A stretch of DNA of 64,000 nucleotides from Candidatus Coatesbacteria bacterium (lineage in GTDB: Bacteria > RBG-13-66-14 > B26-G2 > JAUVZD01). The position numbers and the translations under genes are program-made. Below the pieces are notes generated by a model that worked only from the letters and a program-made list of their open reading frames with translations, did not search any database and was not told the origin of the DNA. The number at the start of each line of letters is the position of its first letter. Within the stretch, counting starts at the first letter, position 1. The stretch lies in NCBI GenBank assembly GCA_030602715.1, contig JAUVZD010000001.1, positions 270,213 through 334,212 of the forward strand. Reading direction: 5' to 3'. Below are positions 8,839 to 57,578 of the stretch, piece by piece.

Positions 8839-8860
8839 ATCTCTCGGCAAGCCGAGAGAT
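8839..8860. terminator. Inverted repeat between convergent genes (putative bidirectional terminator)
   Basis: atctctcggc / gccgagagat perfect inverted repeat 18 nt after the stop at 8821 and 32 nt from the asnB stop on the other strand. Confidence 0.45.
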
Positions 8861-8891
8861 TCAGGGCTCCTCCCAAGCAATCCGTTCGCGG

Positions 8892-10760: not shown

Positions 10761-10775
10761 ACAATCACCCCATCC

Positions 10776-13340: not shown

Positions 13341-13341
13341 A

Positions 13342-22827: not shown

Positions 22828-22848
22828 ATCCTCATAGCCAAACCAAAC

Positions 22849-24277: not shown

Positions 24278-24360
24278 ACGAACCTCTCCGGGATTGCTCC
24301 GATTAATAAAGTATCATAACACAGAGCTACTCAAGATAAAAGTTTTTCCTTTCCAGGCGA

Positions 24361-26630: not shown

Positions 26631-26641
26631 CCCATCCCCCC

Positions 26642-27655
26642 TCAGGTTCTCCTCTGGGGGTCAAATTCACCGTTCAACATCAAATGCCACACCTCATCCA
26701 CCTGTTTGGCAACATCCTGGGTGATAATATCCTTATTACTTTCGTCGCGCACAATGTTCACCCAGAAGCCGGCAAGCCCACATTCGTGAGGTCCACCGGG
26801 GAAGTTACCCTCAAGATAACCGCATAATGCTTCATAGGTTGCCCTGTCCAGCGCCCTGACCACGCTGGTCAGCACATAACCCACCTCCACCCAGTTCTGG
26901 TTGGAGTCGGCTCCCACAGCCACCAACCCGGTCTCCGCAGCCGCCGCCAAAACCCCCTGACTTGCCCCCCCGCAGGGAGCAAATATCACCTGACAGCCCC
27001 CTGCAAACATCTCCAAACCCAGCTCCTTTCCCGCATCCTCGTCTGCGCAGGCGCAGAAGCCGCCGGGAAGGACCTCCGCCCTTAGGGTTAACTCATCGTT
27101 GGAATATTGTAAGCCGTCTATAAAACCCCGCATTATATCCCGGCTGAAGTCGGTGTGGTCTGCGCCGATGAAGCCCACCTCTCCTTTCGCCAGCACATTG
27201 CCCACCACCACCCCACCCAGCACACCGGCGGCATAATTATCAAAGTTATAACTGGCTACATTGGGCAAATCCAGAAGGGAGTCAAAGACCACAAAATTGA
27301 CTTTGGGATGCTTAATTGCCGATTCGCCGACCTTCTGGTGGAGACCTCTGGGAGCTACTATTATCAGTTTTGCCCCCCTCTCAAGGCTAACAGTTATTGC
27401 TTCCTCGGCTTCCTTCCGGGTGGTCGGCTCCAACACATCTATGGTCAGGGCATACTCGTCTATCACCCTCTGGCACCCCACCCAGATGGCGGAGTTGTAG
27501 CTCTTGTCGTCCTTGCTTCCCGGCGCAAGGATTAACACTATCTCACTTTCACCCACCCCCCCCTTTAAGGGTTTTCCGCAGGAGACAAGGGCAGAGACTA
27601 TCGCAGAGGATAGAAGAAGCGTCAGTGCAAAGAGACCTATCCTTCCTTTACACAT
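26642..27655 (-). CDS. BMP-family (PnrA-like) substrate-binding lipoprotein, tentative
   Basis: Lipobox LVSCG. Start set to ATG 27655 (MCKGRIG), 1 nt after the NlpC/P60 stop; the ORF track extends to 27712. Periplasmic-binding-protein-like pattern (IVLILAPGS, GFIGADHTDFS). Confidence 0.45.
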   Translation of the reverse strand: MCKGRIGLFALTLLLSSAIVSALVSCGKPLKGGVGESEIVLILAPGSKDDKSYNSAIWVGCQRVIDEYALTIDVLEPTTRKEAEEAITVSLERGAKLIIVAPRGLHQKVGESAIKHPKVNFVVFDSLLDLPNVASYNFDNYAAGVLGGVVVGNVLAKGEVGFIGADHTDFSRDIMRGFIDGLQYSNDELTLRAEVLPGGFCACADEDAGKELGLEMFAGGCQVIFAPCGGASQGVLAAAAETGLVAVGADSNQNWVEVGYVLTSVVRALDRATYEALCGYLEGNFPGGPHECGLAGFWVNIVRDESNKDIITQDVAKQVDEVWHLMLNGEFDPQRRT

Positions 27656-27656
27656 C

Positions 27657-28640
27657 TTATTGTAAATAGGTTCCAAAGCCATATACCCTGTCTTTCCAGT
27701 AAGGAGCGTCAAATTTGGTGATGGTTACCCCGGCATCGGACGATTCCGCATGTATGAAGCTGTCCCCGCCGATGTAGATGCCCACATGGCTGGGACCGCT
27801 TGAGGTGGTGGAGAAGAAGACCAGATCCCCCGGTCTCAACAGGTCCCGGTTGATGTGGTTAGAGCCATCATACTGGTCATGACAACCCCGCAGAATGGAT
27901 ATTCCCACCTCACTGTAAACCTTCTGCACCAGCCCGGAGCAGTCCATCCCCTCCCGGCTCTGTCCACCATAAACATAGGGCACGCCCAGATAGCTTTTTG
28001 CCGATTCCACAATCTTCGCCCGAATTGTACCCGCAACCGCCCGGTCGTCCTTGACGGTTACATAAGAGGCGAGAATCCATCCCTCGGCGCCGTCGCTGGT
28101 GCGCACCGCAAGCCAGTCATCGGACGAGCCCAGAACCTGAATCTTGGTCCCCCGCTCAAGATAGGCGAGCGGAGCAGAATCCGCCGAGGGGTCGCCCATC
28201 AGGGGGAACTGACTCTGGGAATAATCCCCTTGGTCAGCGGGACTGTCCAGGGCTTCAATCTGCACCCTTATCTGTGAGGGGCTCCCGTCATATTTCTTGC
28301 GGTATATGCGATAGCGCACCTGACCTGAGCAGACCACAGCCAGCCGAGCCACCAGAGGGTTATACTTATACTGCCACAGGTTCAGCTCGGCGACCAGACC
28401 GCCCGACGCCAACTCCGTCACCTCGTCGGAAATAGTGGTGCCCAACATGTCAATATATATCGTGGGCGGGGATTCCTCGGTGCTAACCTTTATCCTCGGG
28501 GGATAAAGCTCGCTGGTGGAAATTACCAGCCAATCCCCCTCCAGGCTCACCCCGGTTATCTCTCCCCCTTCATCGCCTGCGGAGATGCCGACCCAAAGGT
28601 ATATAGAAAATAAAAAAATGGCTGTGAAAGAGATTCGCAA
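27657..28640 (-). CDS. NlpC/P60 (C40) cell-wall peptidase with N-terminal SH3-like domains
   Basis: GVPYVYGGQSREGMDCSGLVQKVY (catalytic Cys), GDLVFF, SHVGIYIGGDSFIHA (catalytic His); signal peptide. Confidence 0.85.
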   Translation of the reverse strand: MRISFTAIFLFSIYLWVGISAGDEGGEITGVSLEGDWLVISTSELYPPRIKVSTEESPPTIYIDMLGTTISDEVTELASGGLVAELNLWQYKYNPLVARLAVVCSGQVRYRIYRKKYDGSPSQIRVQIEALDSPADQGDYSQSQFPLMGDPSADSAPLAYLERGTKIQVLGSSDDWLAVRTSDGAEGWILASYVTVKDDRAVAGTIRAKIVESAKSYLGVPYVYGGQSREGMDCSGLVQKVYSEVGISILRGCHDQYDGSNHINRDLLRPGDLVFFSTTSSGPSHVGIYIGGDSFIHAESSDAGVTITKFDAPYWKDRVYGFGTYLQ

Positions 28641-28761
28641 CTTAAAGCTTTCCCCTCAGATATTTTAGCCATATTACGATTTTTCATATGGCAGGTCAAG
28701 GCTATATGATTTGGAGGTTCTACGCCAGACGGAGCCGATCATTGCGGATTATGTGATGACC

Positions 28762-28790
28762 TTGACACCCACTCAAGCATATGATACTCT
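28762..28790 (+). promoter_or_regulatory. Candidate promoter (TTGACA-17-TACTCT with extended-10 TG) for the 28.8-39.1 kb operon
   Basis: TTGACA 28762-28767; TGATACTCT 28782-28790; first gene starts at 28829 with RBS agaggagg. Confidence 0.35.
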
Positions 28791-28828
28791 TTTTATAAAC
28801 AGTTGAGCAAGAGGAGGAAAATCCGAAT

Positions 28829-30970
28829 ATGAGGCAAAGGTTAATCCCTTTTAAGGAAAAGGGACGTGTTCTCTTAATATCCGGCATAGCTATCATCATC
28901 CTGTTTACGATACTTGCCAACCGAACCTCATTCTGTGCCCAGATGCAAGGGGAACTCCTCTCCCACCTGCCGGACGGCGGATTTCTATACATTGACATCG
29001 TCTCCCTTCCTAAGATGATTATCACCACCCTGGAACAGCCCCACATGATAATACTGCAGGAGGAGAGCGGCGATGAGAGCATCACCGAGTTGATAGACGC
29101 CGCCCTGGACGAAGTCCTCCCCGGGCTTTCTCTGGAGAAGCTATTGCTCCTCTTCCCCGCTGAGTTCTCCTGTGGGGCTTACTACGAAGAAGAGGATTTC
29201 CAATTTATAGTTGCGGTAGATATTGTAAGTGGTGATGAATTCAACCCCCTCCTCAAGCGGTTTCTGGCACTTGGAGAAGAGAAGGGGGGTATCAAAGTAA
29301 AAGAGAAGACCAAAGGTGATTTCCTCTTCTATGAGCTGAAGGGAGATGCAAATGTGGTATATCTTGCCTTTGACGACTCCGTTCTGCTGGTAAGCACAAC
29401 CAAGGAGATGGTTGAAGGAGCGATGAAAAACTTCGCCGAAGCCAAGACCCCCCTAAACGACAATTCCGCCCTGACCAGCGCAAGAGAAAATCTCTCCGAT
29501 GGGGCTGACTATTATCTCCTCTGCGACGGGCAAAAGCTGAGTGAGCTGATATTGGGAAAATTCCCTTCCGAGGAGGAAGGGGGCGAGGTGGAAGAAGCCC
29601 TCCTGTCCGGCCTGACGGAATGGCTGAACACCTTCCTGCAAGACCTGAGATGTATCTCCCTGAGCTTCCGCTTCCCTCCCCAGGAAGCCTCCGCAGTTGA
29701 CCTGCTCACCCCCAGCGACGAGGTTTTCCTCCAGCTCCAGCCCGGCTCGGAAACCGCCGCCCAATTCGGAATGTTGCAGGGGAAAGACCGTCCCAAATGG
29801 ACGCCGCAAGTTGTCCCCGGCGAGACGGTGATGTTATCGTGCAGCACCGGCGAGGAGACTATCACCCCAAAATCCCAAAATTACCTCTCCTATCTCCTCT
29901 CCTTCCTCCCCTTCCCCCGAAGCGAAGCGGAGCTGATGAACGAGGTCCTTGAGCTGCTCCCCACCCCGCCGGAGCTCGCCTTTCTCTCGGATGAGGACCT
30001 GACCGCCGGTCTGGGGCAGGAGACAGCCACCGCCTATATGCCCGGTCCTGACCCATTAAGCTATCTGTTCTCGTTGACCGACAAAGCAGAAGCCAACAGG
30101 TTCTCCCTGCTCCTCTACTCGTTGAAGGAGCCGGGGGACTTTGAAGGGAAGTATCTTGCCCATCTGAACCAGTCGGAACTGGTGGAGGTGGAGACCGTCC
30201 CCTACCTGGGGAAAAATATCTACCACCTGACCCCCACCGAGTCGGCTTATAGGATAAACGAGGAGGCGGTTACCGACTGGATTAACAAGATAATGGGGGA
30301 GATGGGCACAGGCCTCTTTGAGAGGGACGAATGGGACGTGTCGGAGAAGGAGTTCGGCTGGAATATATATGGACAAATAAGTGAGCTGTTCCCCATCATG
30401 GAATCCTATGTCTTCTTCCTCTCGGACTTTATGGTTATAGCCTACGACCCCGATGTCGCCCAGAAGACCATCGCCCACTACATGGAAGGCGATGTCCTGG
30501 CTCAGAACCCCCAGTTTCAGAGATACCTGGCTCATGTTGATGAGGATAACTATTCCCTCTTCTATGTCTCCACCTTCTTCCCCCCAGAGCGCTACGACCT
30601 TCCCGACGACGAAGACCTGGAACAGATGACCACCATGAAAGAAAAACAGACCAAGCCGATAGATGACGACGGTGATGAGGCGCCCTTCACCGAAGGCTAT
30701 CAGTTTTCCTATCAACACCAGCCGACTGAGCTCACCGAAATATGGCAGATGTATTCCGGTGAAGGCTTCATCATCAGCACCACTCTGGGAGCAAACTCTC
30801 TAAAGATAGAGGGTTACCCCAAAGCCTTTGAGAAGCTCTTCATGTCCATCCTCCTCTCAGCCTTCTTCGCCGTCTCTGAGCTGGACGCTTTTGAGTTTGA
30901 CATTGAAGAGAGCGAGGAATATGTCATTGAAGATGAACTCCCTCCAACAAATCCCCTCCACGAAGAATAG
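28829..30970 (+). CDS. Hypothetical membrane-anchored acidic protein (first gene of operon)
   Basis: 713 aa; single N-terminal TM (VLLISGIAIIILFTILA); very acidic C-terminal third; no catalytic motif recognised. Confidence 0.5.
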   Translation: MRQRLIPFKEKGRVLLISGIAIIILFTILANRTSFCAQMQGELLSHLPDGGFLYIDIVSLPKMIITTLEQPHMIILQEESGDESITELIDAALDEVLPGLSLEKLLLLFPAEFSCGAYYEEEDFQFIVAVDIVSGDEFNPLLKRFLALGEEKGGIKVKEKTKGDFLFYELKGDANVVYLAFDDSVLLVSTTKEMVEGAMKNFAEAKTPLNDNSALTSARENLSDGADYYLLCDGQKLSELILGKFPSEEEGGEVEEALLSGLTEWLNTFLQDLRCISLSFRFPPQEASAVDLLTPSDEVFLQLQPGSETAAQFGMLQGKDRPKWTPQVVPGETVMLSCSTGEETITPKSQNYLSYLLSFLPFPRSEAELMNEVLELLPTPPELAFLSDEDLTAGLGQETATAYMPGPDPLSYLFSLTDKAEANRFSLLLYSLKEPGDFEGKYLAHLNQSELVEVETVPYLGKNIYHLTPTESAYRINEEAVTDWINKIMGEMGTGLFERDEWDVSEKEFGWNIYGQISELFPIMESYVFFLSDFMVIAYDPDVAQKTIAHYMEGDVLAQNPQFQRYLAHVDEDNYSLFYVSTFFPPERYDLPDDEDLEQMTTMKEKQTKPIDDDGDEAPFTEGYQFSYQHQPTELTEIWQMYSGEGFIISTTLGANSLKIEGYPKAFEKLFMSILLSAFFAVSELDAFEFDIEESEEYVIEDELPPTNPLHEE

Positions 30971-31381
30971 ATGAGAGGAATCGCTAAAAAGATGAAGAGT
31001 GCTATAATAATAATCTTCTCCCTCCTGCTGGTTCCCGCAACCATCTGGGGACAGGAGATGGTGATAGATACATTTTACGCTTATCCCAATCCCTTCTCCT
31101 GCGAAGACATCCTGAATATAGTGCTGAAATTCACCGGTCAGCCCCACACAGTTTCTGCAACCCTGCAGGTATTTGACCAGGTTGGTGACCTGGTAACCAC
31201 AATAGCCGAGGACCGGCAGGTTACTTCCAATACAAAAGTAAGAATCACCTGGGATGGATTGGACGAGAACGGCGAACGACCCAATCCGGGGGGCTACTTC
31301 ATCCGACTGCAAATGGAAGCTGACACCGGGGAGAGGATAAGTGAGATCTACAAGGTGGTATATTTAGAGGTCAGCAAATGA
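30971..31381 (+). CDS. Small secreted protein consisting only of a FlgD-Ig-like / T9SS C-terminal-sorting-domain-like module
   Basis: Signal peptide, then YAYPNPFS..VLKF.....VSATLQVFDQVGDLVTTI......VRITWDGLDENGERPNPGGYFIRL, matching the YPNPF...vyD..G..V...W.G.d..G....sGvYfyrL pattern of Por_Secre_tail/FlgD Ig-like domains. Starts 1 nt after the upstream stop. Confidence 0.65.
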   Translation: MRGIAKKMKSAIIIIFSLLLVPATIWGQEMVIDTFYAYPNPFSCEDILNIVLKFTGQPHTVSATLQVFDQVGDLVTTIAEDRQVTSNTKVRITWDGLDENGERPNPGGYFIRLQMEADTGERISEIYKVVYLEVSK

Positions 31382-33060
31382 AGCCCCAATCCACAATAAC
31401 CCTCCTCCTCCTGTGTATCAGCTTGGCGCTCCCCTCACAGTCATCCGCTTATGTGGGCGGGCAAAGCGACCTATTCTACGGCGCTAGTGGGGGGCGCCCC
31501 ACCGCCATGGGCGGTGCCTACATCGCCCTCTCCGACGACAGCGTGGGCTTCAATTATAATCCTGCGGGGATAGCCTTCATCACCCAACATCATATAAACT
31601 TTTCCTACTCACTGCGCTTCACGGAGGGAAGTGATTTTCAGGAGTTCTCCTATGCCGGACCGATACCACCCATAATCAACCTGGGCGCATCTCTGGAGAG
31701 GCTTTCCTTCGGGGAGGTGGAGTGGCGCAATCCCGGTGGTAAGCTGGTGGGAAGTTACACCAGCTCAAATATCCGTTTCTCCTTCGGCGGGGCAAGGGCG
31801 TTTTTTGGCATCTTCTCCCTGGGTGGAAAGGTCTCCTACGAGAAATTTAGTGCCGCAGATCAGGAAGATTCACACCCGGACATCAGTATAGGCTTCCAGT
31901 TGCGCCCCGGGGCAGACCCGGAGGAGGGCAGAAGGGGAAACTTCTGCCTGGCTGGCGTCCTTTACGGCACCAACCCCCTGCAGGGGAGCTTCGGCGCCTC
32001 CTTCACTTATGATATAGCAACCCTCAGCGGTCAGGTGGACGCCATCACCGAAGGAATTTATCACCTCCGCTTCGGCGGGGAGCTCTCACTCATAGATTCC
32101 TTTGCCATCCGTGCTGGGTTGGACGACTCAAGTCCCACCTTCGGTATAGGCGTGAAGGCAGGCGGTATCTCCATTGATTACTCCTACGCTTACAAGGAGC
32201 TGGGGACCATTCACACCGCAACGCTGGGTTTCGTCTTCGGTCCTGACCTAACCAGTATCGCCCTCAGGAAGAAACGGATTAAACTGTTGTTGCAGGAGGG
32301 GAAATACCATCTGCAAGTGAAAAATTATACCCTGGCAATAGAGCGCTTTGAGAACGTCCTCTCCTGGGATGAGGAGAACTACGAAGCCAGGGAGCTGTTG
32401 CAGAAAGCCCGTTTGGAGATGCTCCTTGAGGAGAGAGGGGGACTTCTGGAAGCCGGGGAGTATGAGCGGGCTCTGGAGCTCCTCCATCAGGCGAAAGACC
32501 TGGACCCGCAGAACAAGCGCATAGACGGTCACATTGAGGCAACGCTGGAGGCTATCCGCAAACGGGAGTGGGCATACATTGAGCAAGAACATATCTGGGA
32601 GCTTTACGCACAAGCCAGTGAACAGGTCAGAAAGCTCAACCTGTATAGAGCGGTTGGAATTTTAGAGGAGATACTTGAGCTTGACCCCGACAACTCATTC
32701 ATCAAAGACCGCTTAAAGGAAGTGCGGCTGAAGATTACGCCAGTCGCTGTAGTGCCCACGGTGGAGATTACCGCAGACATAATCTCCACCTATGAAGCGG
32801 GAGTGGCGGCGATAGACTCCGGTCGGCTGAACGAAGGCATAAGCCTTCTGGAGGGGGTATATTCCCAGGTGGGCGGATATGAGAGCACGGTCAGCAAACT
32901 CAACGACGGCTACTTCTATCTGGGCATGGACAGCTACAGCCGAGGTCGCCTGAGGGAGGCTATCGGCTACTGGCAGAGGATTCTGGCTCTGGACCCGGGG
33001 GACGCCCAGGCAACTAAACTGATAGACAAAGCCCAGAAGGAATTAGCGGGGATGGAATAG
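31378..33060 (+). CDS. Putative outer-membrane beta-barrel-like protein (FadL/PorV-like N-terminal motif) fused to C-terminal TPR-like repeats
   Basis: Signal peptide; N-terminal half Gly/aromatic-rich with GGRPTAMGGAYIALSDDSVGFNYNPAGIAF (FadL/OMPP1-type motif); C-terminal ~250 aa helical repeats (LDPQN, LDPDN, LDPGD periodicity). ATGA overlap with the upstream gene. Confidence 0.45.
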   Translation: MKPQSTITLLLLCISLALPSQSSAYVGGQSDLFYGASGGRPTAMGGAYIALSDDSVGFNYNPAGIAFITQHHINFSYSLRFTEGSDFQEFSYAGPIPPIINLGASLERLSFGEVEWRNPGGKLVGSYTSSNIRFSFGGARAFFGIFSLGGKVSYEKFSAADQEDSHPDISIGFQLRPGADPEEGRRGNFCLAGVLYGTNPLQGSFGASFTYDIATLSGQVDAITEGIYHLRFGGELSLIDSFAIRAGLDDSSPTFGIGVKAGGISIDYSYAYKELGTIHTATLGFVFGPDLTSIALRKKRIKLLLQEGKYHLQVKNYTLAIERFENVLSWDEENYEARELLQKARLEMLLEERGGLLEAGEYERALELLHQAKDLDPQNKRIDGHIEATLEAIRKREWAYIEQEHIWELYAQASEQVRKLNLYRAVGILEEILELDPDNSFIKDRLKEVRLKITPVAVVPTVEITADIISTYEAGVAAIDSGRLNEGISLLEGVYSQVGGYESTVSKLNDGYFYLGMDSYSRGRLREAIGYWQRILALDPGDAQATKLIDKAQKELAGME

Positions 33061-33063
33061 AAG

Positions 33064-34656
33064 ATGGCGGAGCCGAAAAATACAATCGCTTTGGTGAACG
33101 AGAAAGATAAGCCCAAAGAACGCTATATTTCTCTACGCTTACAGATTGCCGCCGCAACCGTCTTGCTAATAGTGGCGACAACCATCACTCTGGGCACTTT
33201 CTCCCTGCGCCATGAACGCCAAGCACTCCACCGCGAGTTCATCGCCCGCATTCTTGCCCAGACCCGCTCAGTGGCGGGGACCAGCTCCGGCTCCATTCTG
33301 CTGGATATAGCGGAAACATATACCCAGCCCCTTGCCCTCAGTACTCTGGAGGAGAACGAGGATTGCATTGATATCACCATCGTGAACAAGGAGAATATTA
33401 TCTACGGGGCAAAAGAGACTTTTCTTCTGGGCAAACCCTACCAACCGGAGCAGGACCTGGCTGCTATTGGGGGGGATTTCGGACAACTCAGCGGTGAGAC
33501 CGTCGCCGAGAAAGGAGACCTGATATATATCAGTGTCCCCATAAGAAAGGGGGAGATGGGAACGATAGGTTACGTCTATGCTTCCTACAGCAGTGCCAAC
33601 CTAACCCATATGCTCACCCTGGCCCGAAACAACCTGATAATTATCTCCCTGATCGTCCTGGTGGTGGGAATATTCGCCGCTTATTTTGTCTCCATGATGC
33701 TGGTAAGTCCGGTGCGCAAGCTGGCAAATGCCGCCCGCCAGGTGGGGATGGGAAACTTTGATGTTACCGTGGAGGCAAAAACACGCAACGAACTGGGGCA
33801 GTTAGCGAACACCTTCAACCGTATGGCAGAGAGTCTGAAAGAAGCCCAGAAGATGATTTTGGAGAAGAACCGCATGGAGCAGGAGCTGACCATCGCCCGC
33901 CAACTGCAGAAGAGCTTCCTGCCCAGCATATTCCCCCACTTGCAGGGGGTGGATATCTATGCCCGTTGCCGCACCGCTCAGGCGGTAGGCGGAGACTACT
34001 ACGATTTCCTGGAGCTGGATGAGGACAACATCGGGCTATTGATAGCGGATATCTCCGGCAAGGGTTTATCCGGTCTCATAATCATGAGCATGGTGCGCAA
34101 TGTTCTCCGCTCGCAAGCCCGCAGGTATCAGTCGCCACGTCGGGCGTTGATAGAGACCAACACCCTGCTCACCCCGGACTTTCAAAAGGGGCGCTTCGTC
34201 ACCGCCTTCCTGGGGACCTACCACCGCCCCACCCGACTGCTCACCTACGCCAATGCCGGACACACTCCCCTGCTCTACTACCGTGCCGATGACAACATCG
34301 TTGCCATGCTGGAGAAATCGGGGCGACCTATAGGTCTCTTCTCCAGCGAGGTCTTTGAAGAGCGCCTGGAGGAAGGACAGCTGGAGCTTTCGGAGAACGA
34401 CCTCATCTTACTCTTCACCGACGGGATAACCGAGGCGATTAACAACGCCGGTCAACTATACGGCGAAAGCCGTCTATTGAAGCTCATCCCCCACCTCAAG
34501 GACCTTGATGCAAAAAGCATAGTGGAGGAGGTCTTCAACAATGTACACCGCTTCCGGGGCAAAGGCGGCACCTTAAGCGACGACATAACTATTATGGTTA
34601 TGAGAACCACAGCCCAAAGTGAGCTGGAAAAGCTCTATACAGCCCAGGAGATATAA
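33064..34656 (+). CDS. Membrane sensor PP2C phosphatase (two TM + periplasmic domain + HAMP + SpoIIE/RsbU-type PP2C)
   Basis: TM1 AAATVLLIVATTITLGTF, TM2 LIIISLIVLVVGIFAAYFV; HAMP (SPVRKLANAARQVGMGNFDVTVEAKTRNELGQLANTFNRMAESL); PP2C motifs VGGDYYDF, LLIADISGKGLSG, FTDGITEA. Confidence 0.85.
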   Translation: MAEPKNTIALVNEKDKPKERYISLRLQIAAATVLLIVATTITLGTFSLRHERQALHREFIARILAQTRSVAGTSSGSILLDIAETYTQPLALSTLEENEDCIDITIVNKENIIYGAKETFLLGKPYQPEQDLAAIGGDFGQLSGETVAEKGDLIYISVPIRKGEMGTIGYVYASYSSANLTHMLTLARNNLIIISLIVLVVGIFAAYFVSMMLVSPVRKLANAARQVGMGNFDVTVEAKTRNELGQLANTFNRMAESLKEAQKMILEKNRMEQELTIARQLQKSFLPSIFPHLQGVDIYARCRTAQAVGGDYYDFLELDEDNIGLLIADISGKGLSGLIIMSMVRNVLRSQARRYQSPRRALIETNTLLTPDFQKGRFVTAFLGTYHRPTRLLTYANAGHTPLLYYRADDNIVAMLEKSGRPIGLFSSEVFEERLEEGQLELSENDLILLFTDGITEAINNAGQLYGESRLLKLIPHLKDLDAKSIVEEVFNNVHRFRGKGGTLSDDITIMVMRTTAQSELEKLYTAQEI

Positions 34657-34680
34657 AAGCATATGCGGAGGATATAGTAA

Positions 34681-35148
34681 ATGCCAAGGGACAATAAGAA
34701 TATTCAGGAATACTCAATTCGGATAGGAAGCAACCCCAAATCGCTGGGACATGCCCGAGACTTCGTGATTCAATTGCTAAAAGAAAGCGGTTTTTCCAAC
34801 GACGAGATAAGCATTCTGGAGCTGGTGACCTATGAGGCTTGTGCCAACTCCATAGAACACGCTTACAGCAATCAACCGGATTTCTATGTAGATTTGAATA
34901 TCCAGATTCGCGGGCGGGAGGTGTTCATCAAAATTGAGGATAGCGGTCAGGAATTCCAACCCGGGGATATCCACCCGCTGGACATCGGCGATCGCATAGA
35001 CCGCCGTGCCAGCAGGGGTATGGGCTTGCCGTTGATGAAGACTTTGATGGATGAGGTGACAATTGAACGCACATTTGACAACCATAATCGCATTACCATG
35101 AGAAAGGATTTCTCCAAAAAAAAGAAAGCGCCTAAAGGAAAAACTTAG
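34681..35148 (+). CDS. RsbW/SpoIIAB-like anti-sigma regulatory factor (GHKL serine kinase)
   Basis: N-box LVTYEACANSIEHAY, G-box RGMGLPLMKTLMDEV; 155 aa; 24 nt after the phosphatase gene. Confidence 0.85.
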   Translation: MPRDNKNIQEYSIRIGSNPKSLGHARDFVIQLLKESGFSNDEISILELVTYEACANSIEHAYSNQPDFYVDLNIQIRGREVFIKIEDSGQEFQPGDIHPLDIGDRIDRRASRGMGLPLMKTLMDEVTIERTFDNHNRITMRKDFSKKKKAPKGKT

Positions 35149-35156
35149 GAGGAATA

Positions 35157-37160
35157 GTGAGAGAGCTGGATATATCTCTGAGTAAAAAAACGGAAGAGGG
35201 AATCTACACCTTTAAGCTGGCCGGGAGTTTGGGGGTAGAGGGCTCCCGGGGACTGACGAAATTGTTTGACGCCTGCCTTAAGGAGAAAGTCTATAGCATT
35301 ATCATTGACCTCTCCCAGGTTGATTTCATCTCCAGCGCCGGGATGGGGGTATTCCTCTCCGTTGTCGGTGAACTGAGAGAACACAATGGGGATATTATCT
35401 TCATGGCTATGCCCGATAAAATCAGAAAGATATTCTCCTCCCTGGATGTTCTGGACTACTTTGAAAACTATAAGAGCGAGGATAAAGCCAGAACCGCTCT
35501 AAGGAAGAAGGGGAAAAAGACAACCGGGGAGTTAGCAAAAACAAAGAAAGCTTTAAGCAAATTAGACCATTTGCAGTTCATCTCCGAATCTACCAAAAGT
35601 ATCTCCCTGGAGAAGAAAAGCGTTCTGGTCATCCCCTCCATCATGGAATCGCTGATGAGCCACCTGGATGTGGAAGATTTACTCTTTGTACCCATCTCCA
35701 TACCACTGCGCCAGGAGTTTGACTTCATCAGTCTGGGCCGGGGCAATCTGCGGGAGATAACCGTGGAGGAGACCCAGCAGTTAAGCTCTCTTTTAAAAAA
35801 CTACCAGGCGCCGGTTCAGCTGTCCGAACTACCCGATGTCTATGAGGATATCTATGTAAAGCTGGCTCGTACCGGCTGTGAATTGGTAGTGCCCATCTTC
35901 TCCGAGGAGATCCTCTCCTCCCTGCTCTTTTTAGGGCAAAGGGGGTTGGGAGCCCGCTATCAAAAAGAAGACATGCTCATGCTCCAAACCATAGCCGGAA
36001 TGCTCGGCTCCGCCATTCAAAACCATCGTCTGCAGAAGCGCCTGGATGATGCAGTCTCCTCCGAAGAGCTGGAGAACGCCCATGTTCGCCTGGAGAGGAA
36101 GGTGCAAGAACTGGAGACCTTGTTCATCGTCAGCCAACAACTGGGCAGTTCCATGGAAGTTGATGAACTGCTCAACAACTTCCTGGTGGTAACTGTGGGG
36201 CAGATGGGCACCAACAAAGGGCTTATCTTCCTCACCGACGAGGGGGATTACAATCTGACCTGCAAAGCCTTCAAGGGTCAATTCGCCCGCATTCCCTTGG
36301 ATGTCACCCTCCCCATAGACGGCAAGCTGGTCCAGTTGGTATCAAGCGCAAATCACCCCATTAAGGCGCACGACAAAGATGTCTTCAACAAGTTGAGTTC
36401 CGACGAGCGTAAGTTCATCACCGACAACGACATCTCCCTTCTGGGAGCCATCAAATATAAAGGCGAGCTTCGGGGCTTGAACGCTGTAGGTTCCAAGGTG
36501 AGCAAGAAGGAGTATACTACCGAGGATTTTGACCTCTTCTCCATCCTCAATTTCCAGGCAGCCACCGCCCTGGAGAATGTCAAACTCTTTGACAAGCTGA
36601 AAAATGTTTACAGCGGGGTGATGAGGGCTCTGGTGACCGCACTGGAAGCGAAAGACCCCCACTACAAGGGACATACCGAACGGGTCACCCGCCTATCCGC
36701 CCAGATGGGGGAAAAGTTGGGTTTCAATAATGAGAGACTGCGCAACCTCATCTTCGGCGCTGTATTGCACGATATCGGTAGAGTGGGGGTGCGGGAGTCC
36801 ATCCTCAATAAGGTTGAACCCCTGACCGAAGAGGAGAAGGAGGAACTCATGCGCCATCCGGTCATCGGCACGGAGATACTCAAGGAGGTTGAATTCTTCA
36901 AGGGTTCATTGGCTATAGTCCGCAACCATCACGAGAACTACGACGGTAGCGGCTATCCCGATGGTCTCGCCGGTGAATCCATCCCCATTGAAGTGCGCAT
37001 CGTGACCCTAGCCAACGCCTACGAGGCGATGACCTCCACCCGCCGTTATCGGGGCGCATTGACCAATAAAGAGGCTATAGAGGAGATCCGCAGAAATGCA
37101 GGCACCCAGTTTGACCCCAACCTGGCAAAAATCTTCATCAACCTGATATCCAGCAAGTAA
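35157..37160 (+). CDS. STAS (anti-sigma-antagonist-like) - GAF - HD-GYP fusion protein (putative phosphorylation-controlled c-di-GMP phosphodiesterase)
   Basis: N-terminal STAS with phospho-acceptor context IIIDLSQVDFISSAGMGVF; central GAF-like region; C-terminal HD-GYP with KDPHYKGHTERV, LHDIGRVGV (HD) and HHENYDGSGYPDGL (GYP). Confidence 0.85.
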   Translation: MRELDISLSKKTEEGIYTFKLAGSLGVEGSRGLTKLFDACLKEKVYSIIIDLSQVDFISSAGMGVFLSVVGELREHNGDIIFMAMPDKIRKIFSSLDVLDYFENYKSEDKARTALRKKGKKTTGELAKTKKALSKLDHLQFISESTKSISLEKKSVLVIPSIMESLMSHLDVEDLLFVPISIPLRQEFDFISLGRGNLREITVEETQQLSSLLKNYQAPVQLSELPDVYEDIYVKLARTGCELVVPIFSEEILSSLLFLGQRGLGARYQKEDMLMLQTIAGMLGSAIQNHRLQKRLDDAVSSEELENAHVRLERKVQELETLFIVSQQLGSSMEVDELLNNFLVVTVGQMGTNKGLIFLTDEGDYNLTCKAFKGQFARIPLDVTLPIDGKLVQLVSSANHPIKAHDKDVFNKLSSDERKFITDNDISLLGAIKYKGELRGLNAVGSKVSKKEYTTEDFDLFSILNFQAATALENVKLFDKLKNVYSGVMRALVTALEAKDPHYKGHTERVTRLSAQMGEKLGFNNERLRNLIFGAVLHDIGRVGVRESILNKVEPLTEEEKEELMRHPVIGTEILKEVEFFKGSLAIVRNHHENYDGSGYPDGLAGESIPIEVRIVTLANAYEAMTSTRRYRGALTNKEAIEEIRRNAGTQFDPNLAKIFINLISSK

Positions 37161-37228
37161 TCCATCAATTCAGAGTATTGTTGGATAAAAGATAAATCTC
37201 ACCTCAATTCTTTTAAAGGGAGAAATAG

Positions 37229-37819
37229 ATGGGCACTCACAGATACTCCTGGATAGTAAAACTCTCGCTAGTAGTACTTATCGCAACGCTCACCTTCTGG
37301 GTGGGGGCATCGTTCAGCAAAGACGACGGACAAATATCCGACAAGACCAAGACCCGCATTCAGGAATTGCTGGAGGAGGGAAATCGTTTTGTCTTGGAGG
37401 GGGAATACCGTAAAGCGGAGGAGAAGTTCAAGAAGATTTTAGAGATAGACCCCGACAATCCCATGGCTCACAACAATCTGGGATTGATGTATAAGGAGAA
37501 GGAACTTTACCACTCCGCCAAGGCGGAGTTTGAGCTGGCACTTGAGGTAATGCCAAACTATTATAAAGCGCTGAACAACCTGGGCAACACCTATTTCGCC
37601 ATGGGACGCTACGGTTCAGCAAGGGATGCCTACCTCAAAGCCCTGGAGGTAAAACCCGATTTCTCCGAGGCTCACTGGAACCTTGCCCTCACCTACGAAA
37701 AGCTGGACAACAATCTTCTGGCATTGAAGGAGTGGCGCAGTTTCATCGCCAACAGCGACGGTTCAGCCAATGTTTCTCTGGCAAAAGACCACATTGATAG
37801 AATACTTGAGGAGATGTAG
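37229..37819 (+). CDS. Membrane-anchored TPR-repeat protein
   Basis: N-terminal anchor LSLVVLIATLTFWVGA; three to four canonical TPRs (AHNNLGLMYKEKELYHSAKAEFELALEV, YKALNNLGNTYFAMGRYGSARDAYLKALEV). Confidence 0.8.
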   Translation: MGTHRYSWIVKLSLVVLIATLTFWVGASFSKDDGQISDKTKTRIQELLEEGNRFVLEGEYRKAEEKFKKILEIDPDNPMAHNNLGLMYKEKELYHSAKAEFELALEVMPNYYKALNNLGNTYFAMGRYGSARDAYLKALEVKPDFSEAHWNLALTYEKLDNNLLALKEWRSFIANSDGSANVSLAKDHIDRILEEM

Positions 37820-39067
37820 ATGCGCCGTTCTCTCATCACAACCGCCCTCCTGCTCCTCTCCCTGACCGCAGTAAGTGCGGGTCAGACTATTGACACCATG
37901 GATGTCCTCTCCACAGCCGAGGAAGTGGTTGGATATGAGAAAATCTCCGACAGGTCTCCACGAGATGTCTTCGCCACCGCCGATGACGTGGCGGTCTTCT
38001 ATAGCAACCCAGATGCGGTCATGGATACTATCGGCGTCTATGAGGATTTCATATACCGGAAATATGGTGTTGTTTCTGGAGATGAGGTAATCTACTCCCT
38101 GGGCGAGAAGGATGACCTTATGGAGGTCTATATCGCAGAGCTGAAAAACGCCGAGTCAGAGGAGCACCGCTGTGTCATCCTCACATATCACCGTTTTGAG
38201 CCCTTCCCCCGAAACGCCTACGAGGTCTCCCCGGCGGTCTTTGACCAGCAGATGGCATACATCGCCGAGAACGGCTACACAGTAATATCATTGGACCAAC
38301 TCCTGGAGGCAATCTATCTTCAGGACCCTGACCTGCTACCGGAAAATTCGGTGGTCATCACCGTGGACGACGGCTTCCGTTGTTTCCTGACCCGGGCGGT
38401 GCCCATCCTTCAAAAATACGGCTTCACCGCCACCCTCTTCGTCTATACCGCATACGTCAATGCCGGTGGTCGCTCCCTCACCTGGGACGAACTGCGCCTG
38501 GTAGAGAGTATGGGCTTCTCCGTTGAGTGCCACTCCTATACCCATCCCAACTTCAACAACTTTAAAAAATACGGCTCCATCAAAGGCTCCTACAACCAGT
38601 TCGCCTACCACGAACTGCTGGACTCAAAGAAGTTGATTGAGAAGAACCTGGAGAAAGAGGTCAAGTTCTTCTGCTGGCCCTATGGGGAGTTAAACGACTA
38701 CGCCATGCACCTGGCAATCAAGTGCGGTTATGAGAGCACGGTGACGGTCAAGGGGGGAGCAGTGGGGCTCAAATCCAACCCCCTATACCTCAATCGCTTC
38801 GGTGTCTATTCCAAGACTACTATGGAGACCTTTAAAAAGCGCCTGGAGGGAAAGATAGTCTATCAGTATGAAGAGGACAAAGGAACCTACTTCAGTGATA
38901 AATATTACGGCATCACCACCCACTTCTACAAGTTCCCCGAAGAGCTACCACCAGCGGCGGACATAGACGCCTTGTGGGACGCCATCTTTGAGGAGGAAGA
39001 GATTGACCTATCGCCTGCGGAAGGGGAGGTGCCGCCGGGTTTTGAGGGTGAACTCATCCTTGAATAA
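37820..39067 (+). CDS. Secreted polysaccharide deacetylase (CE4/NodB-homology) family protein
   Basis: Signal peptide; VVITVDDGF (NodB motif 1), ECHSYTHPN (His-His metal motif), FFCWPYGE. Confidence 0.8.
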   Translation: MRRSLITTALLLLSLTAVSAGQTIDTMDVLSTAEEVVGYEKISDRSPRDVFATADDVAVFYSNPDAVMDTIGVYEDFIYRKYGVVSGDEVIYSLGEKDDLMEVYIAELKNAESEEHRCVILTYHRFEPFPRNAYEVSPAVFDQQMAYIAENGYTVISLDQLLEAIYLQDPDLLPENSVVITVDDGFRCFLTRAVPILQKYGFTATLFVYTAYVNAGGRSLTWDELRLVESMGFSVECHSYTHPNFNNFKKYGSIKGSYNQFAYHELLDSKKLIEKNLEKEVKFFCWPYGELNDYAMHLAIKCGYESTVTVKGGAVGLKSNPLYLNRFGVYSKTTMETFKKRLEGKIVYQYEEDKGTYFSDKYYGITTHFYKFPEELPPAADIDALWDAIFEEEEIDLSPAEGEVPPGFEGELILE

Positions 39068-39094
39068 AAAGTGAGAATAGAATCCTCACAGCAA

Positions 39095-39131
39095 AAAAGC
39101 CGGCGCCCCGAACTTCCGGGGCGCCTTGTTG
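39095..39131. terminator. Bidirectional rho-independent terminator between convergent operons
   Basis: aaaaaagcc-GGCGCCCCG-aacttc-CGGGGCGCC-ttgttgtat: A-tract, perfect 9-bp GC stem, T-rich tail. Confidence 0.65.
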
Positions 39132-39155: not shown

Positions 39156-39806
39156 TTACTCCTCTTCCTTCTTCTCCGTCTTCTTGAAGGGCTCATAAAC
39201 ACCGCCTTCCCTCGGCGGCTGCAACATGTGCTTCAACATGGTATTGCCGGCGCGGATATCCTGGATAACGCTCAGGATTTCCCGCTGAAAGGTCTCCTCA
39301 AAGATCAGGAACCTGCCCAGCTGGATATCATCCAGCACCTCCCCCATTGAAACGAATATATCAGCTTCCTGCCCCACCAGACTGGCTTTGGTCGCCAGAA
39401 GCTCCTCCGTCTTGTCCTTCACTTCATCCACATCCGGTTCGGCGTTGTTCAATAAGTCCAGCAACTCCCTTATCGTACCCTCCCGCTCAATGAAATGCTC
39501 CTGGCGTACATCCTCCAATTGTCTGTATAATGGGAAGAATGTGGTTGACTGCTCCACGGAGAGCCCCAGCACTTCTGTCATACGCCAGATCTTTATCGCC
39601 TCCAGCCGCTCCTCGGCATCCCTGACCTTCTCCTCAAATTCCGCCCCAAATCCAAGGTCATAGGCGCCCTCTGAAGCGCCCCAATAGCCCCAGTAAAACT
39701 CCTGGATGAAGGTGTCCTCCTGGGCAAATCCCACGGAGGCGATTAAGACCATAAAGGAAAGGGTGAGGAATGCAACCACAATCCGAGGGCGATTATCCAT
39801 AGCCAA
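39156..39806 (-). CDS. Periplasmic CpxP/Spy-like (LTXXQ-motif) protein, tentative
   Basis: Signal peptide; helical and acidic; LSVEQSTTFFPLYRQLEDVRQ resembles the LTXXQ motif. Last gene of the ECF sigma/anti-sigma operon. Confidence 0.45.
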   Translation of the reverse strand: MAMDNRPRIVVAFLTLSFMVLIASVGFAQEDTFIQEFYWGYWGASEGAYDLGFGAEFEEKVRDAEERLEAIKIWRMTEVLGLSVEQSTTFFPLYRQLEDVRQEHFIEREGTIRELLDLLNNAEPDVDEVKDKTEELLATKASLVGQEADIFVSMGEVLDDIQLGRFLIFEETFQREILSVIQDIRAGNTMLKHMLQPPREGGVYEPFKKTEKKEEE

Positions 39807-39886
39807 CCTCCTGGAATTCCCGTTGTAAATCTACACAAATCAGGTACAATCTATGGGAAGAATAAAAGCTGGAATTTAATTTTTGC

Positions 39887-40978
39887 CTACTCTCCCAAAA
39901 TGGCAAATACTTTGGTTCTCTCCTCATGGCTCAGGCTGCCTATCACCACATATATTGACGAACCATTCCTTCTGTTGGTGAACTCCTCCAGGAGCACGTT
40001 CTCCAGATAGACCGCATCCTCAGGGGAGATTGATGAGGAGAAGGTAACATAGGTCCCTTCACCGCTGATCTCTGTGCCGGAAGTGACCACATAGGGTAAA
40101 CCGCTACGCACCACCATCTCATCAACCACCAAAGGCAACATCGTGCCCGATATCATCCTCGCAGTAACCGGCATAACCGGGTCCTTTACCGCATAAAAAT
40201 CGGTGATATCCCCATCGGATACCCGGAAGAACCCACCGGAAGAGGAGACGCTGTCCATCAGGTCCCTATCAAATGTTATCACGGGGGAGACATCCGTCTC
40301 CGGGACAGCCATCTCTGTGAAGGGAACCTCCTCCCGGGAATAACGCCCAAAAGTATACTCTAGCTCGTCAGAGACAACCCCTTCTGCGGGAGCGTGGTAA
40401 ATATCAGCACCGCTCAATGCCCCAAGGGTTGTAGATACCGCCTCCTTCTCAGCGGTTAAAGTATGCGGCGGCTTAACGTGCACAAGGGTGGGAACCGGCG
40501 CCTCTTCCTCGGTAACCAGGCCGGGAGCCTCCTCCGTCTTGGGCTTTAACCCTTCAAAATCCCTCGTCTCCAGGGATGAAATATCAAGACCCTCAGGCTC
40601 CTGCGTGTAAGAAAGAACATAGGGAAGAATGTAGAAGCCGGCAAGTCCCACCAGGATAATACCGGCTATTGTTGCCGCTGCAAGGAGCGTCCTGGGCTTC
40701 AAGAGGGGCTTCATTGACAGCACCCTGCCGGCACCCCTCCCCTCAGCTTTAGCCCTCTCTCTCACCCGGATGGCTAGAGTGGACATAAACAGCACCCCGG
40801 CGGAAGCGACTTCCATATCGCCCACCATAGAGAGAAGCTCTCTACCCTGCCTCAAGTAATCACGGCAGAGGGGACATTCCCTCAGATGCTCCTGGACCGA
40901 AAGGGGAAGCTCCTCCTCACTGGTGAGGGTCTCGTCTATAAGATACTGTATTTTTTCACACTTCATATCACTCACCAA
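39887..40978 (-). CDS. Membrane-spanning anti-sigma factor with N-terminal zinc-finger motif
   Basis: CEKIQ..(x)..HLRECPLCRDY (H-x3-C-x2-C), single TM (LLAAATIAGIILVGLAGFYIL), periplasmic C-terminal domain; immediately follows and overlaps the ECF sigma gene. Alternative start MKCEKI at 40966. Confidence 0.6.
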   Translation of the reverse strand: MVSDMKCEKIQYLIDETLTSEEELPLSVQEHLRECPLCRDYLRQGRELLSMVGDMEVASAGVLFMSTLAIRVRERAKAEGRGAGRVLSMKPLLKPRTLLAAATIAGIILVGLAGFYILPYVLSYTQEPEGLDISSLETRDFEGLKPKTEEAPGLVTEEEAPVPTLVHVKPPHTLTAEKEAVSTTLGALSGADIYHAPAEGVVSDELEYTFGRYSREEVPFTEMAVPETDVSPVITFDRDLMDSVSSSGGFFRVSDGDITDFYAVKDPVMPVTARMISGTMLPLVVDEMVVRSGLPYVVTSGTEISGEGTYVTFSSSISPEDAVYLENVLLEEFTNRRNGSSIYVVIGSLSHEERTKVFAILGE

Positions 40979-41556
40979 TCTGTTTCACCCAAAGCGGCGA
41001 CCGAGTCGCCCAGAATCTTGCGCAGTTTGCCCAAGGCAAATGCTCCACTGGCCTTCACCGAGCCTTCACTTATCCCCAGAGTTGAAGCGACCTCGGCGAC
41101 GGAGAGCCCGTTAAGATGGCGCATTTGAAACACCTCTCGTTGCCTGCTGGGCAGGGAATCTATCGCCCGGCACAGTCGCTCATACACCTGCCTCGCCACC
41201 GCCCTCCTGAAAGGATTATCTATACTCTGGTGGAAATTGATGACCACTTCCAGGGAGACCTCCTGTTCCCGACGAATCACCTTACGCAATCGATTCTTGG
41301 CGGTGTTGACCGCGATGCGTAGAAGCCAGGTCTTGAAACTGGATAATCCCTTGAAGGTATGGGCTTTGCGGTAAAGTTTGAAGAAGACATCCTCGGTAAC
41401 TTCCTCGGCGGCTTCACGATTGCGCAGGATGGATATCACTGTGGCAAAGACCGCCTCCCTGTACTTTGCTACCAGTGCCTCAAAGGCGGTCTCATCACCA
41501 CCTAAGAACTCCACAAGAAGTCTGTCATCGCCGACCCCGGGCGTGCGCCCCGCCAT
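40972..41556 (-). CDS. ECF-type RNA polymerase sigma-70 family sigma factor
   Basis: Region 2 (FEALVAKYREAVFATVISILRNREAAEEVTEDVFFKLYRKAHTF) and region 4 HTH (QREVFQMRHLNGLSVAEVASTLGISEGSVKA). Confidence 0.9.
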   Translation of the reverse strand: MAGRTPGVGDDRLLVEFLGGDETAFEALVAKYREAVFATVISILRNREAAEEVTEDVFFKLYRKAHTFKGLSSFKTWLLRIAVNTAKNRLRKVIRREQEVSLEVVINFHQSIDNPFRRAVARQVYERLCRAIDSLPSRQREVFQMRHLNGLSVAEVASTLGISEGSVKASGAFALGKLRKILGDSVAALGETDW

Positions 41557-54443: not shown

Positions 54444-54543
54444 GGACTGTAACCTTTAGCAACCAGTAATAACTTGATTTTTTCACCGCACTGTGGTAAG
54501 ATATTGAGTTGAAAAATAGATTTCAGTTGGAGGTTTCTGAGGA

Positions 54544-55194: not shown

Positions 55195-55209
55195 CACCTT
55201 CATTCTACC

Positions 55210-57573: not shown

Positions 57574-57578
57574 TAGAA

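Follow-up and report, generated by a model that had tools for sequence, protein, structure and literature searches.

In a 64,000-nucleotide stretch of a Candidatus Coatesbacteria genome (hereafter the window; contig JAUVZD010000001.1, positions 270,213 to 334,212), we found eight plus-strand genes, g1 to g8, the last seven of which form an operon that is conserved among relatives. We consider it somewhat probable that this conserved operon encodes a trans-envelope partner-switching pathway controlling the breakdown of cyclic di-GMP (c-di-GMP), together with a co-expressed periplasmic deacetylating pair. The predicted topology puts g5 and g6 in the cytoplasm, with g2, g3, g7, g8 and the sensor domain of g4 lying outside it. 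The genes are the following, with product lengths in amino acids (aa).

28829-30970, plus strand: g1, variable first gene, 713 aa
30971-31381, plus strand: g2, mini-protein resembling a type IX secretion system (T9SS) sorting domain, 136 aa (129 aa if a later start is used)
31378-33060, plus strand: g3, PorV-like barrel with tetratricopeptide repeats (TPR), 560 aa
33064-34656, plus strand: g4, membrane protein with a PP2C phosphatase domain, 530 aa
34681-35148, plus strand: g5, predicted RsbW-type kinase, 155 aa
35157-37160, plus strand: g6, STAS-GAF-HD-GYP protein, 667 aa, GTG start
37229-37819, plus strand: g7, TPR protein, 196 aa
37820-39067, plus strand: g8, predicted CE4 deacetylase, 415 aa

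Successive genes are separated by 0, -4 (an ATGA overlap of g2 and g3), 3, 24, 8, 68 and 0 nucleotides (nt), in that order, and a Shine-Dalgarno-like sequence lies upstream of all eight starts. A preliminary description of this DNA had proposed eight co-directional, tightly packed plus-strand genes, and the open reading frames (28829-39067, junctions of -4 to 68 nt) agree with it; its domain calls for all eight genes are likewise borne out.

We obtained the genomic contexts of homologues from exact-protein look-ups and by scanning metagenomes with the STAS region, and mapped these contexts by tblastn. A word-indexed search covering 5.8 billion clusters returned 10 matches to g3 and 13 full-length matches to g6, and scans of 185,579 species-representative genomes with g3 singly and with an alignment of g3 and the protein P0002 gave no match. 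The contexts fall into three deep clades, in which some contigs carry only part of g2-g8. Clade A comprises the window, near-identical contigs (L005, L006, L017 and L018), a relative represented by two overlapping contigs (L033 and L012), and L019/L001. All eight genes are present in L033+L012, with identities from g1 to g8 of 36, 44, 54, 70, 64, 69, 70 and 61%, and g2-g8 are present and g1 absent in L019/L001. Clade B (L010, L011, L013, L015, L022-L029, L031 and L032) contains g2-g8 at 26-45% identity to the window, and g2-g8 are also present in clade C (L030, on a 437 kb contig, and L016). Order and strand are the same throughout, with gaps of at most 77 nt, at between-clade identities of 25-45%, while the flanks differ: an ECF-sigma unit in clade A, a convergent glycosyltransferase/DegT/FemAB-like cluster in clade B, and CBM96/ThiI in clade C. 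Because g1 is variable between lineages, the conserved core is the seven genes g2-g8. The preliminary description had named synteny in relatives as the test that might refute its eight-gene unit; g2-g8 are indeed kept as one unit across the three deep clades amid unrelated flanks, whereas g1, absent or replaced in relatives, drops out of that unit. Among clade-A members, the cytoplasmic parts are 64-73% identical compared with 36-56% for g1-g3, and this faster divergence of g1-g3 fits surface exposure.

At the centre of the core, g4-g6 have the parts of a partner switch that would act on an HD-GYP phosphodiesterase. The g4 protein is composed of a first transmembrane (TM) segment (residues 28-46), a periplasmic sCache-like domain (~145 aa), a second TM segment (191-209), a HAMP domain and a PP2C/SpoIIE domain (SpoIIE, 160 bits). 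Its motifs GGDY(Y/F)D, AD(I/V)SGKG, (T/S)DGI and DD(I/M)T are invariant in six orthologues from across the clades, and the metal-binding Asp set expected of a partner-switch PP2C phosphatase is intact. Based on a HATPase_c_2 match of 84.8 bits and an N-box (YEACAN.IEHA), G1 box and G2 box that are invariant across clades, g5 is predicted to be a cytoplasmic RsbW/SpoIIAB-type serine protein kinase. In g6, a STAS domain (49.4 bits) is followed by a linker, a GAF domain (GAF_3, 34 bits) and an HD-GYP domain (HD_5, 131.2 bits, cutoff 27.2). Thirteen orthologues invariantly share S59 and S60 of the STAS motif DFISSAGMG, as well as H538-D539, H591-H592-E593 and G599-Y600-P601. S60 presumably occupies the position of S58 in SpoIIAA. 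We predict that g6 is a c-di-GMP phosphodiesterase with a phosphorylatable S60 on its N-terminal STAS domain. The g4-g6 proteins score below the equivalog cutoffs for SiaA, RsbW (g5, 64.4 vs 145 bits) and SpoIIAA. No sigma factor is encoded inside the block. The ECF sigma gene downstream of the operon (40972-41556) was considered as a partner of the switch and rejected, being convergent, located beside a putative anti-sigma gene (39887-40978) and confined to clade A.

The two genes preceding the switch had been described as FlgD/T9SS-CTD-like (g2) and beta-barrel/TPR (g3). Both calls stand and can be made more specific, as a mini-protein consisting of a C-terminal domain (CTD) only and a PorV-family barrel. 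The g2 product contains a signal peptide and one T9SS type-A-like CTD, a FlgD_ig-type beta-sandwich, and nothing else. It matches the C-terminal domain of PorU (E = 7.7e-13) and scores 20.2 bits against PF18962 (Por_Secre_tail; cutoff 27), and the clade-C orthologue clears the TIGR04183 cutoff at 24.1 bits. The type-A hallmarks YPNPF, WDG.D..G and G.Y are conserved across eight g2 orthologues, and a basic C-terminal end is also present. CTDs of this T9SS type would point to the FCB superphylum. The start of g2 possibly lies 21 nt further downstream, where another annotation of a near-identical contig places it (129 aa).

The N-terminal half of g3 is of the PorV/PorQ/UPF0164 type, and its C-terminal half is made of TPR. 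Against the NCBIfam PorV family NF033709, g3 scores 71.1 bits (E = 1.2e-19, model positions 12-147), and its clade-B orthologue covers model positions 12-324 at 34.9 bits; g3 also clears the Pfam UPF0164 cutoff (29 vs 21.4 bits). A g3 family profile matches PorV in the PDB (6h3i_F) at E = 7.6e-25. The AlphaFold2 model of g3, with a predicted local distance difference test score (pLDDT) of 83.7, shows an N-terminal hatch, 14 strands (residues ~30-290) and helices at residues 291-559. Foldseek ranks PorV first and second (8gl6_F and 6h3i_F, both SprA translocon complexes; E = 6.5e-10, TM-score to target 0.57), followed by FadL. According to this model, g3 is an outer-membrane PorV/FadL-class 14-stranded barrel, and its C-terminal TPR domain (~270 aa) is presumed to be periplasmic.

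Variant layouts in more distant lineages place comparable parts side by side. PorV-TPR proteins only 23-24% identical to g3 are encoded in L002-L004 and L007. Directly before the PorV-TPR gene in L002 (positions 1-10000; also in L003 and L004) lies a gene for a 3393-aa protein with a faint CARDB match only, and the corresponding upstream gene in L007 encodes a protein of at least 553 aa. The upstream proteins of L002 and L007 end in a type-A CTD (YPNPF/APNPF, GVYL and K(I/V)AVV(R/K)). In both loci, the downstream gene encodes a one-polypeptide fusion of an RsbW-type kinase, a TM segment, a periplasmic region of ~165 aa, a second TM segment, HAMP and PP2C. The L002 fusion extends into TPR repeats and is followed by a 219-aa STAS protein whose motif, VDYVSSAGWG, resembles that of g6. 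Neither L002 nor L007 has g7-g8 or an HD-GYP output. In all five lineages with context, the PorV-TPR gene is found between a CTD-ending gene and a membrane PP2C/kinase module. In addition, P0007 (415 aa, on a 2.2 kb JGI contig) is a PorV-like barrel fused to a C-terminal FlgD_ig domain, that is, a natural fusion of the g3/g2 type.

At the other end of the core, g7 has a hydrophobic N-terminus (a signal peptide or an anchor) followed by TPR, and the N-termini of its orthologues resemble cleavable signal peptides; g7 is presumed to be a periplasmic scaffold. It lies directly before g8 in all clades, with a junction of 0, -14, -8 or 12 nt. The g8 protein combines a signal peptide with a CE4 domain (Polysacc_deac_1, 88.4 bits, cutoff 23.1), and its N-terminus is hydrophobic and signal-peptide-like in every clade. 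The motifs (I)T(V/I)DDG, HS.(T/S)H and WPYG, which include the metal-binding and catalytic residues expected of CE4 enzymes, are invariant across clades, and in clade A the protein carries an acidic C-terminal tail. g8 matches the N-terminal domain of PgaB at E = 1.1e-27, and its PDB matches include 6dq3, PgaB (3vus/4f9d/4u10) and IcaB (4wcj). It stays below the equivalog cutoffs of PgaB (TIGR03938, 96.6 vs 321.9 bits) and IcaB (TIGR03933, 54 vs 248 bits); only the deacetylase domain is matched in these two proteins, and the block contains no glycosyltransferase family 2 (GT2) gene. Since its best family and PDB matches are PgaB, IcaB and PplD, g8 is predicted to be a secreted de-N-acetylase of this type within CE4.

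Taken as one pathway, these proteins would connect the outer membrane to the cytoplasm. In the T9SS, the CTDs of cargo, PorU and PorZ are held by PorV and PorQ, as in SprA-PorV-cargo and in the PorV-PorU and PorQ-PorZ attachment complex; 8gl6 is a complex of PorV with the RemA CTD. By analogy, the g3 barrel would hold the g2 CTD at the outer membrane as PorV and PorQ do, and in other lineages a g3-type barrel would hold the large upstream-encoded CTD protein at the cell surface. The TPR arm of g3 would reach into the periplasm and report the state of the outer-membrane complex to the Cache-like domain of g4, either directly or through g7; alternatively, the arm might contact g7 and g8 instead. 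In the cytoplasm, g5 would phosphorylate S60 of the g6 STAS domain and g4 would remove the phosphate. The phosphorylation state, the binding of g5 to unphosphorylated STAS, or both would then switch the GAF-HD-GYP part and thereby local c-di-GMP. Made in fixed proportion to the switch, g7 and g8 would partially de-N-acetylate an envelope polymer containing N-acetylglucosamine. As for the input, we put forward, as a tentative proposal less probable than the pathway as a whole, that the PorV-TPR barrel and the CTD act as the outer-membrane sensor of a so far unrecognised signalling route across the envelope, in which CTD occupancy or mechanical state is relayed by the TPR arm to the inner-membrane PP2C/kinase switch, here gating the HD-GYP phosphodiesterase directly. 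If so, the status of a surface protein would set c-di-GMP and envelope glycan deacetylation, with the CTD ligand being a free mini-protein here and giant adhesin-like or protease-like proteins elsewhere.

Several observations weigh against this pathway. Each step of the signal flow is drawn from adjacency and homology, and the suggested link of g2-g3 to CTD binding comes, by analogy, only from the adjacency of CTD-encoding genes. g2 falls just below the cutoffs of TIGR04183 (18.7 bits, cutoff 23) and FlgD_ig (26.9 bits, cutoff 27), and g3 falls below the PorV-family cutoff of NF033709 (71 vs 90 bits). We found no T9SS core gene in the window or in the other examined loci, which bears on how g2 would cross the outer membrane, and the CTD motif occurs in g2 only, with no other CTD protein in the 64 kb. 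No synthase is encoded in the block. The link of g7-g8 to the switch is limited to clades A-C, perhaps one larger lineage. Finally, in a further group, clade D (L008, L009 and L021), homologues 39-40% identical to g6 occur without PP2C, kinase, PorV-TPR or CE4 genes, indicating that a protein of the STAS-GAF-HD-GYP kind can function in different surroundings.

This last observation, together with L002 and L007, which lack g7-g8 and the HD-GYP output, is what would be expected if three independent modules (g2-g3, g4-g6 and g7-g8) merely travelled together with no joint mechanism, and the g6-g7 spacer of 52-77 nt in clades A and C is also consistent with such a separation. However, that gap shrinks to 2-3 nt in clade B, and the PorV-TPR and PP2C/kinase genes are adjacent in 5/5 lineages, including those with kinase-phosphatase fusions. 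Independent modules are hard to square with a gene order, strand and tight spacing that persist although identity has dropped to 25-45% and the flanks have been replaced, and we regard this explanation as improbable.

The clade D homologues of g6 (L008, 8715-17615) are located after a PgaC/NodC-like GT2 gene and before genes for a discoidin (F5/8 type C) protein, an F420-ligase-like protein and two ~680-aa TPR proteins. Another locus, L020, was examined as a possible g1-g8-type cluster and rejected, since its matching STAS protein is a stand-alone paralogue beside a different kinase fusion. This STAS protein (132 aa, 75% identical to the g6 STAS domain; L020 8671-10399) follows a 436-aa protein that matches the g5 kinase in its C-terminal part, a partner-switch layout of another kind built on a close STAS paralogue.

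The resemblance of g8 to PgaB, IcaB and PplD raises a different possibility, namely that the block supplies the periplasmic and outer-membrane half of an exopolysaccharide system that is synthase-dependent, like Pga or Pel. Here g3 would be an export porin with a TPR scaffold, g7 a PelE/PilF-like adaptor and g8 a polymer de-N-acetylase, and g4-g6 would merely tune c-di-GMP for a synthase encoded elsewhere. A barrel with TPR recalls PgaA, PelB and BcsC, the clade D homologue of g6 has a PgaC/NodC-like GT2 and a discoidin-domain protein as neighbours, the adjacent divergent cluster of clade A includes a PilZ gene, and Wza/Wzc-type export genes lie ~15 kb downstream of the operon. The details of g3 fit this proposal poorly: its barrel is of the 14-strand PorV/FadL class with a hatch rather than the 16-18-strand PgaA/PelB/BcsC/AlgE kind, and its TPR domain is C-terminal, not N-terminal. 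Moreover, no clade has a glycosyltransferase inside the conserved block, g3 is always preceded by a gene for a T9SS-type CTD, for which a polysaccharide porin would have no need, and L002 and L007 keep the CTD protein, the PorV-TPR protein and the partner switch without CE4. We therefore think an exopolysaccharide role of this kind unlikely.

In clade B, a convergent glycan cluster directly follows the CE4 gene (L010 13890-19647; L013 8741-14496; L015 8579-14342). It encodes a GT1_4-like protein, a GT2, a DegT aminotransferase, a 509-532-aa protein and an Acetyltransf_6 (FemAB-like) protein, and it is reminiscent of the linking-sugar pathway by which T9SS cargo is anchored (PorR/VimA/VimE; PMC7468200). 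In that pathway, the linking sugar of A-type lipopolysaccharide (A-LPS) requires VimE, which belongs to the CE4 family, along with the FemAB-like VimA and the DegT-type PorR (PMC7468200). One could thus imagine that the whole cluster serves T9SS cargo anchoring, with g8 as a VimE-like enzyme of a Wbp/Vim linking-sugar pathway and g2-g3 resembling an attachment complex. The DegT, FemAB-like and glycosyltransferase genes convergent right after g8 in clade B would suit such a role, as would the T9SS-like character of g2, g3 and h1, the first gene of the clade-B block. The DegT and FemAB-like neighbours are, however, found only in the closely related members of clade B and are missing next to the block in clades A and C. 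In contrast to the Vim pathway, which is cytoplasmic and works on nucleotide- or lipid-linked sugars, g8 has a signal-peptide-like N-terminus, and g8 matches PgaB, IcaB and sporulation-type CE4 families, with no match to a PEP-CTERM/Vim-type CE4 model at E < 0.01. Because of this N-terminus and the PgaB/IcaB-type family matches, we set aside g8 as a VimE equivalent and consider a cargo-anchoring function very improbable.

The first gene of the window's cluster stands apart from the conserved core. The g1 protein is acidic (isoelectric point 4.2), with a hydrophobic N-terminal anchor at residues 12-30 and a conserved hydrophobic C-terminal helix at residues 670-688. Its sole family match is to DUF3352 (PF11832) at 24.4 bits, below the 26.8-bit gathering cutoff and limited to residues 521-584, and its homologue P0041 (36-39% identical) likewise has only a weak DUF3352 match. 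The word-indexed search returned one 92%-identical protein, and an exhaustive HMMER search among 1.84 billion cluster representatives found only two relatives. The AlphaFold2 model, built from a three-sequence alignment, has a pLDDT of 31.6 and is unusable. g1 is present in the clade-A relative L033+L012 (36% identity). In the equally distant clade-A relative L019/L001 it is absent: from g2 to the divergent NlpC/P60 gene there are only ~490 nt. In clade B, the place of g1 is taken by the non-homologous 839-aa gene h1, which encodes a T9SS type-A CTD (38 bits, cutoff 23) and an MXAN_6640-like HExxH region; we detected no similarity between g1 and this clade-B first gene. Clade C has no large gene ahead of g2. 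The GC content of g1, overall and at third codon positions, is ordinary, so composition gives no sign of a recent insertion. We read g1 as a lineage-restricted, fast-evolving, divergent DUF3352-like near-orphan, a dispensable first gene for an accessory envelope protein outside the conserved core.

We also examined the transcription signals around the eight genes. Two sites bound them.

28756..28785, plus strand: weak sigma-70-like promoter candidate 5' of g1, ATGACC-18-TATGAT, with 9/12 consensus matches only
39102-39125, both strands: GC-rich hairpin terminator of 9-10 G-C pairs, with A6 before it and a T-rich sequence after it

The hairpin is the sole strong terminator-like site between 27.5 and 40.5 kb and is shared between the g1-g8 operon and the minus-strand gene that converges on it (39156-39806), in keeping with the strong bidirectional terminator reported earlier at 39095-39131. 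The extended -10 promoter proposed at 28762-28790 fared less well: TTGACA (28762-28767) is separated from TATGAT (28780-28785) by just 12 nt and no TG precedes the -10 element, so an extended -10 promoter is not supported. Promoter-like matches number 15 compared with 9.8 +/- 3.1 in shuffled sequences, barely above that level. Terminator-like sites inside the operon (19, compared with 14.7 +/- 3.8 in shuffles) are at chance level, and internal terminators were rejected on that ground. The g6-g7 spacer was considered as a regulatory RNA or attenuator and rejected, as its folding z-score is -0.33 and it is not conserved among clade-A members; it contains no terminator or stable structure. Across the window we found no tRNA and no Rfam match, and hence no rRNA marker and no c-di-GMP riboswitch.

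The surroundings of the operon contain further envelope and glycan genes. On the minus strand, a divergent cluster at 21961-28640, conserved throughout clade A (L001, L019 and L033), encodes an NlpC/P60 protein with SH3, a Bmp-type lipoprotein, a GHL10/DUF4015 (glycoside-hydrolase-like) protein, a UbiA prenyltransferase and an LPG_synthase_TM protein, as well as a 126-aa PilZ-domain protein (~22849-23229) and a protein of ~290 aa. A cluster with PilZ, a c-di-GMP receptor domain, thus adjoins the HD-GYP operon. On the other side, a convergent three-gene unit (39156-41556, minus strand) is conserved in clade A only (L012 and L019). It consists of an extracytoplasmic function (ECF) sigma factor gene (40972-41556), a gene for an acidic 216-aa secreted protein with no family match (39156-39806), and a gene for a 363-aa protein (39887-40978) with an N-terminal H-x3-C-x2-C motif, one TM segment and no Pfam or NCBIfam match, which on these features is probably an anti-sigma factor. 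Some 15 kb downstream of the operon lies a polysaccharide export locus (53715-58547) comprising a GT2 gene (53715-54443, minus strand) and genes for a Wza-like Poly_export/SLBB protein (54544-55194), a Wzc-like Wzz/GNVR/AAA_31 protein (55210-57573) and an NAD-dependent epimerase (57579-58547).

Farther away, a minus-strand row at 8892-14679 encodes a glutamine-dependent asparagine synthase (AsnB/WbpS-like), an 867-aa protein (10776-13379) with no Pfam or NCBIfam match, and a GlmU-like nucleotidyltransferase; together with a DegT aminotransferase gene (607-1815, minus strand), these may be sugar-modification genes. At 4660-8821, a gene for an 860-aa TPR protein overlaps one for a TonB-dependent-receptor-like barrel (7217-8821), and at 61776-63863 an Omp85-family gene (61776-63119) is followed by a TPR protein gene (63123-63863). 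A 537-aa protein encoded at 50443-52056 has an InhA-like MAM domain, a weak match to a myxosortase-dependent M36 metallopeptidase and no CTD motif.

How partner switches receive extracytoplasmic signals, and how HD-GYP enzymes without receiver domains are regulated, are both poorly understood. The g2-g8 block provides a candidate that is defined genetically and shows both of its ends, with a PorV-class barrel, TPR and CTD as the input and a STAS-fused phosphodiesterase as the output. If the proposed wiring is true, PorV-family barrels have been recruited for signalling beyond the shuttling and anchoring of cargo, and stand-alone CTDs have a function of their own. A c-di-GMP sink coupled in fixed stoichiometry to a PgaB-like deacetylase would also be relevant for biofilm biology. 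Although the hosts are uncultured, the small proteins with intact catalytic motifs make kinase, phosphatase, phosphodiesterase and deacetylase assays feasible in vitro.

The preliminary description did not recognise the gene combination as a described system. Our full-text literature searches found no paper describing it, and none in which PorV or type IX secretion is linked to c-di-GMP, HD-GYP or partner switches. The parts are all of known kinds, and their wiring appears to be undescribed. For g3, the nearest described architecture is that of the FadL-like outer-membrane proteins of T. pallidum, which are UPF0164 relatives: TP0548, TP0859 and TP0865 are 14-strand FadL-class barrels whose periplasmic extension, at the C-terminus, is alpha-helical and contains TPR (PMC8407342). 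These proteins have short helical bundles and are proposed to be nutrient importers, with no CTD partner or partner-switch neighbours reported (PMC8407342). g3 is also comparable to PorV and PorQ of the T9SS, sharing the 14-strand PorV-class barrel by profile and fold, the preceding CTD-ending gene and the fusion seen in P0007. PorV and PorQ differ in having no counterpart of the ~270-aa TPR domain of g3, which scores under the PorV-family cutoff; in addition, the partner of g3 is a CTD without cargo, and the pair adjoins a signalling cascade, not translocon or sortase genes. Like PgaB and IcaB with TPR partners (PgaA-PgaB, PelA-PelB), g8 is a predicted secreted CE4 protein with intact motifs and is paired with a TPR protein, but it lacks the C-terminal glycoside-hydrolase-like domain of PgaB, and no PgaC/IcaA synthase accompanies it in the block.

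The Rcs system, in which RcsF reports through outer-membrane proteins to an inner-membrane sensor, offers an analogy only: there, too, a small exported protein in an outer-membrane barrel reports the state of the envelope. It has no homology to g1-g8, and the chemistry here would be Ser phosphorylation of STAS and c-di-GMP hydrolysis. With the HD-GYP enzymes RpfG, PmGH and PA4781, g6 shares the full HD...HHE..DG.GYP signature. The usual regulatory partner of such enzymes is a receiver domain, whereas g6 has STAS and GAF, an architecture found only in the 13 full-length proteins of the word-indexed search. For partner switches, non-sigma outputs controlling c-di-GMP or polysaccharide are already established, as in SiaABCD, SypE/SypA and HenR. 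The operon shares a membrane HAMP-PP2C protein, an RsbW-type kinase and a STAS-type target with SiaABCD (P. aeruginosa), SypE/SypA (V. fischeri), HsbR/HsbA/HsbD and HenR (Anabaena), whose output, as proposed here, is c-di-GMP level or polysaccharide production. It differs from these systems at both ends, since the switch would act on a phosphodiesterase within one polypeptide, through a STAS domain joined in cis to GAF-HD-GYP, and not on a diguanylate cyclase, glycosyltransferase or sigma factor as a separate protein, and the candidate input side is an outer-membrane PorV-TPR/CTD pair.

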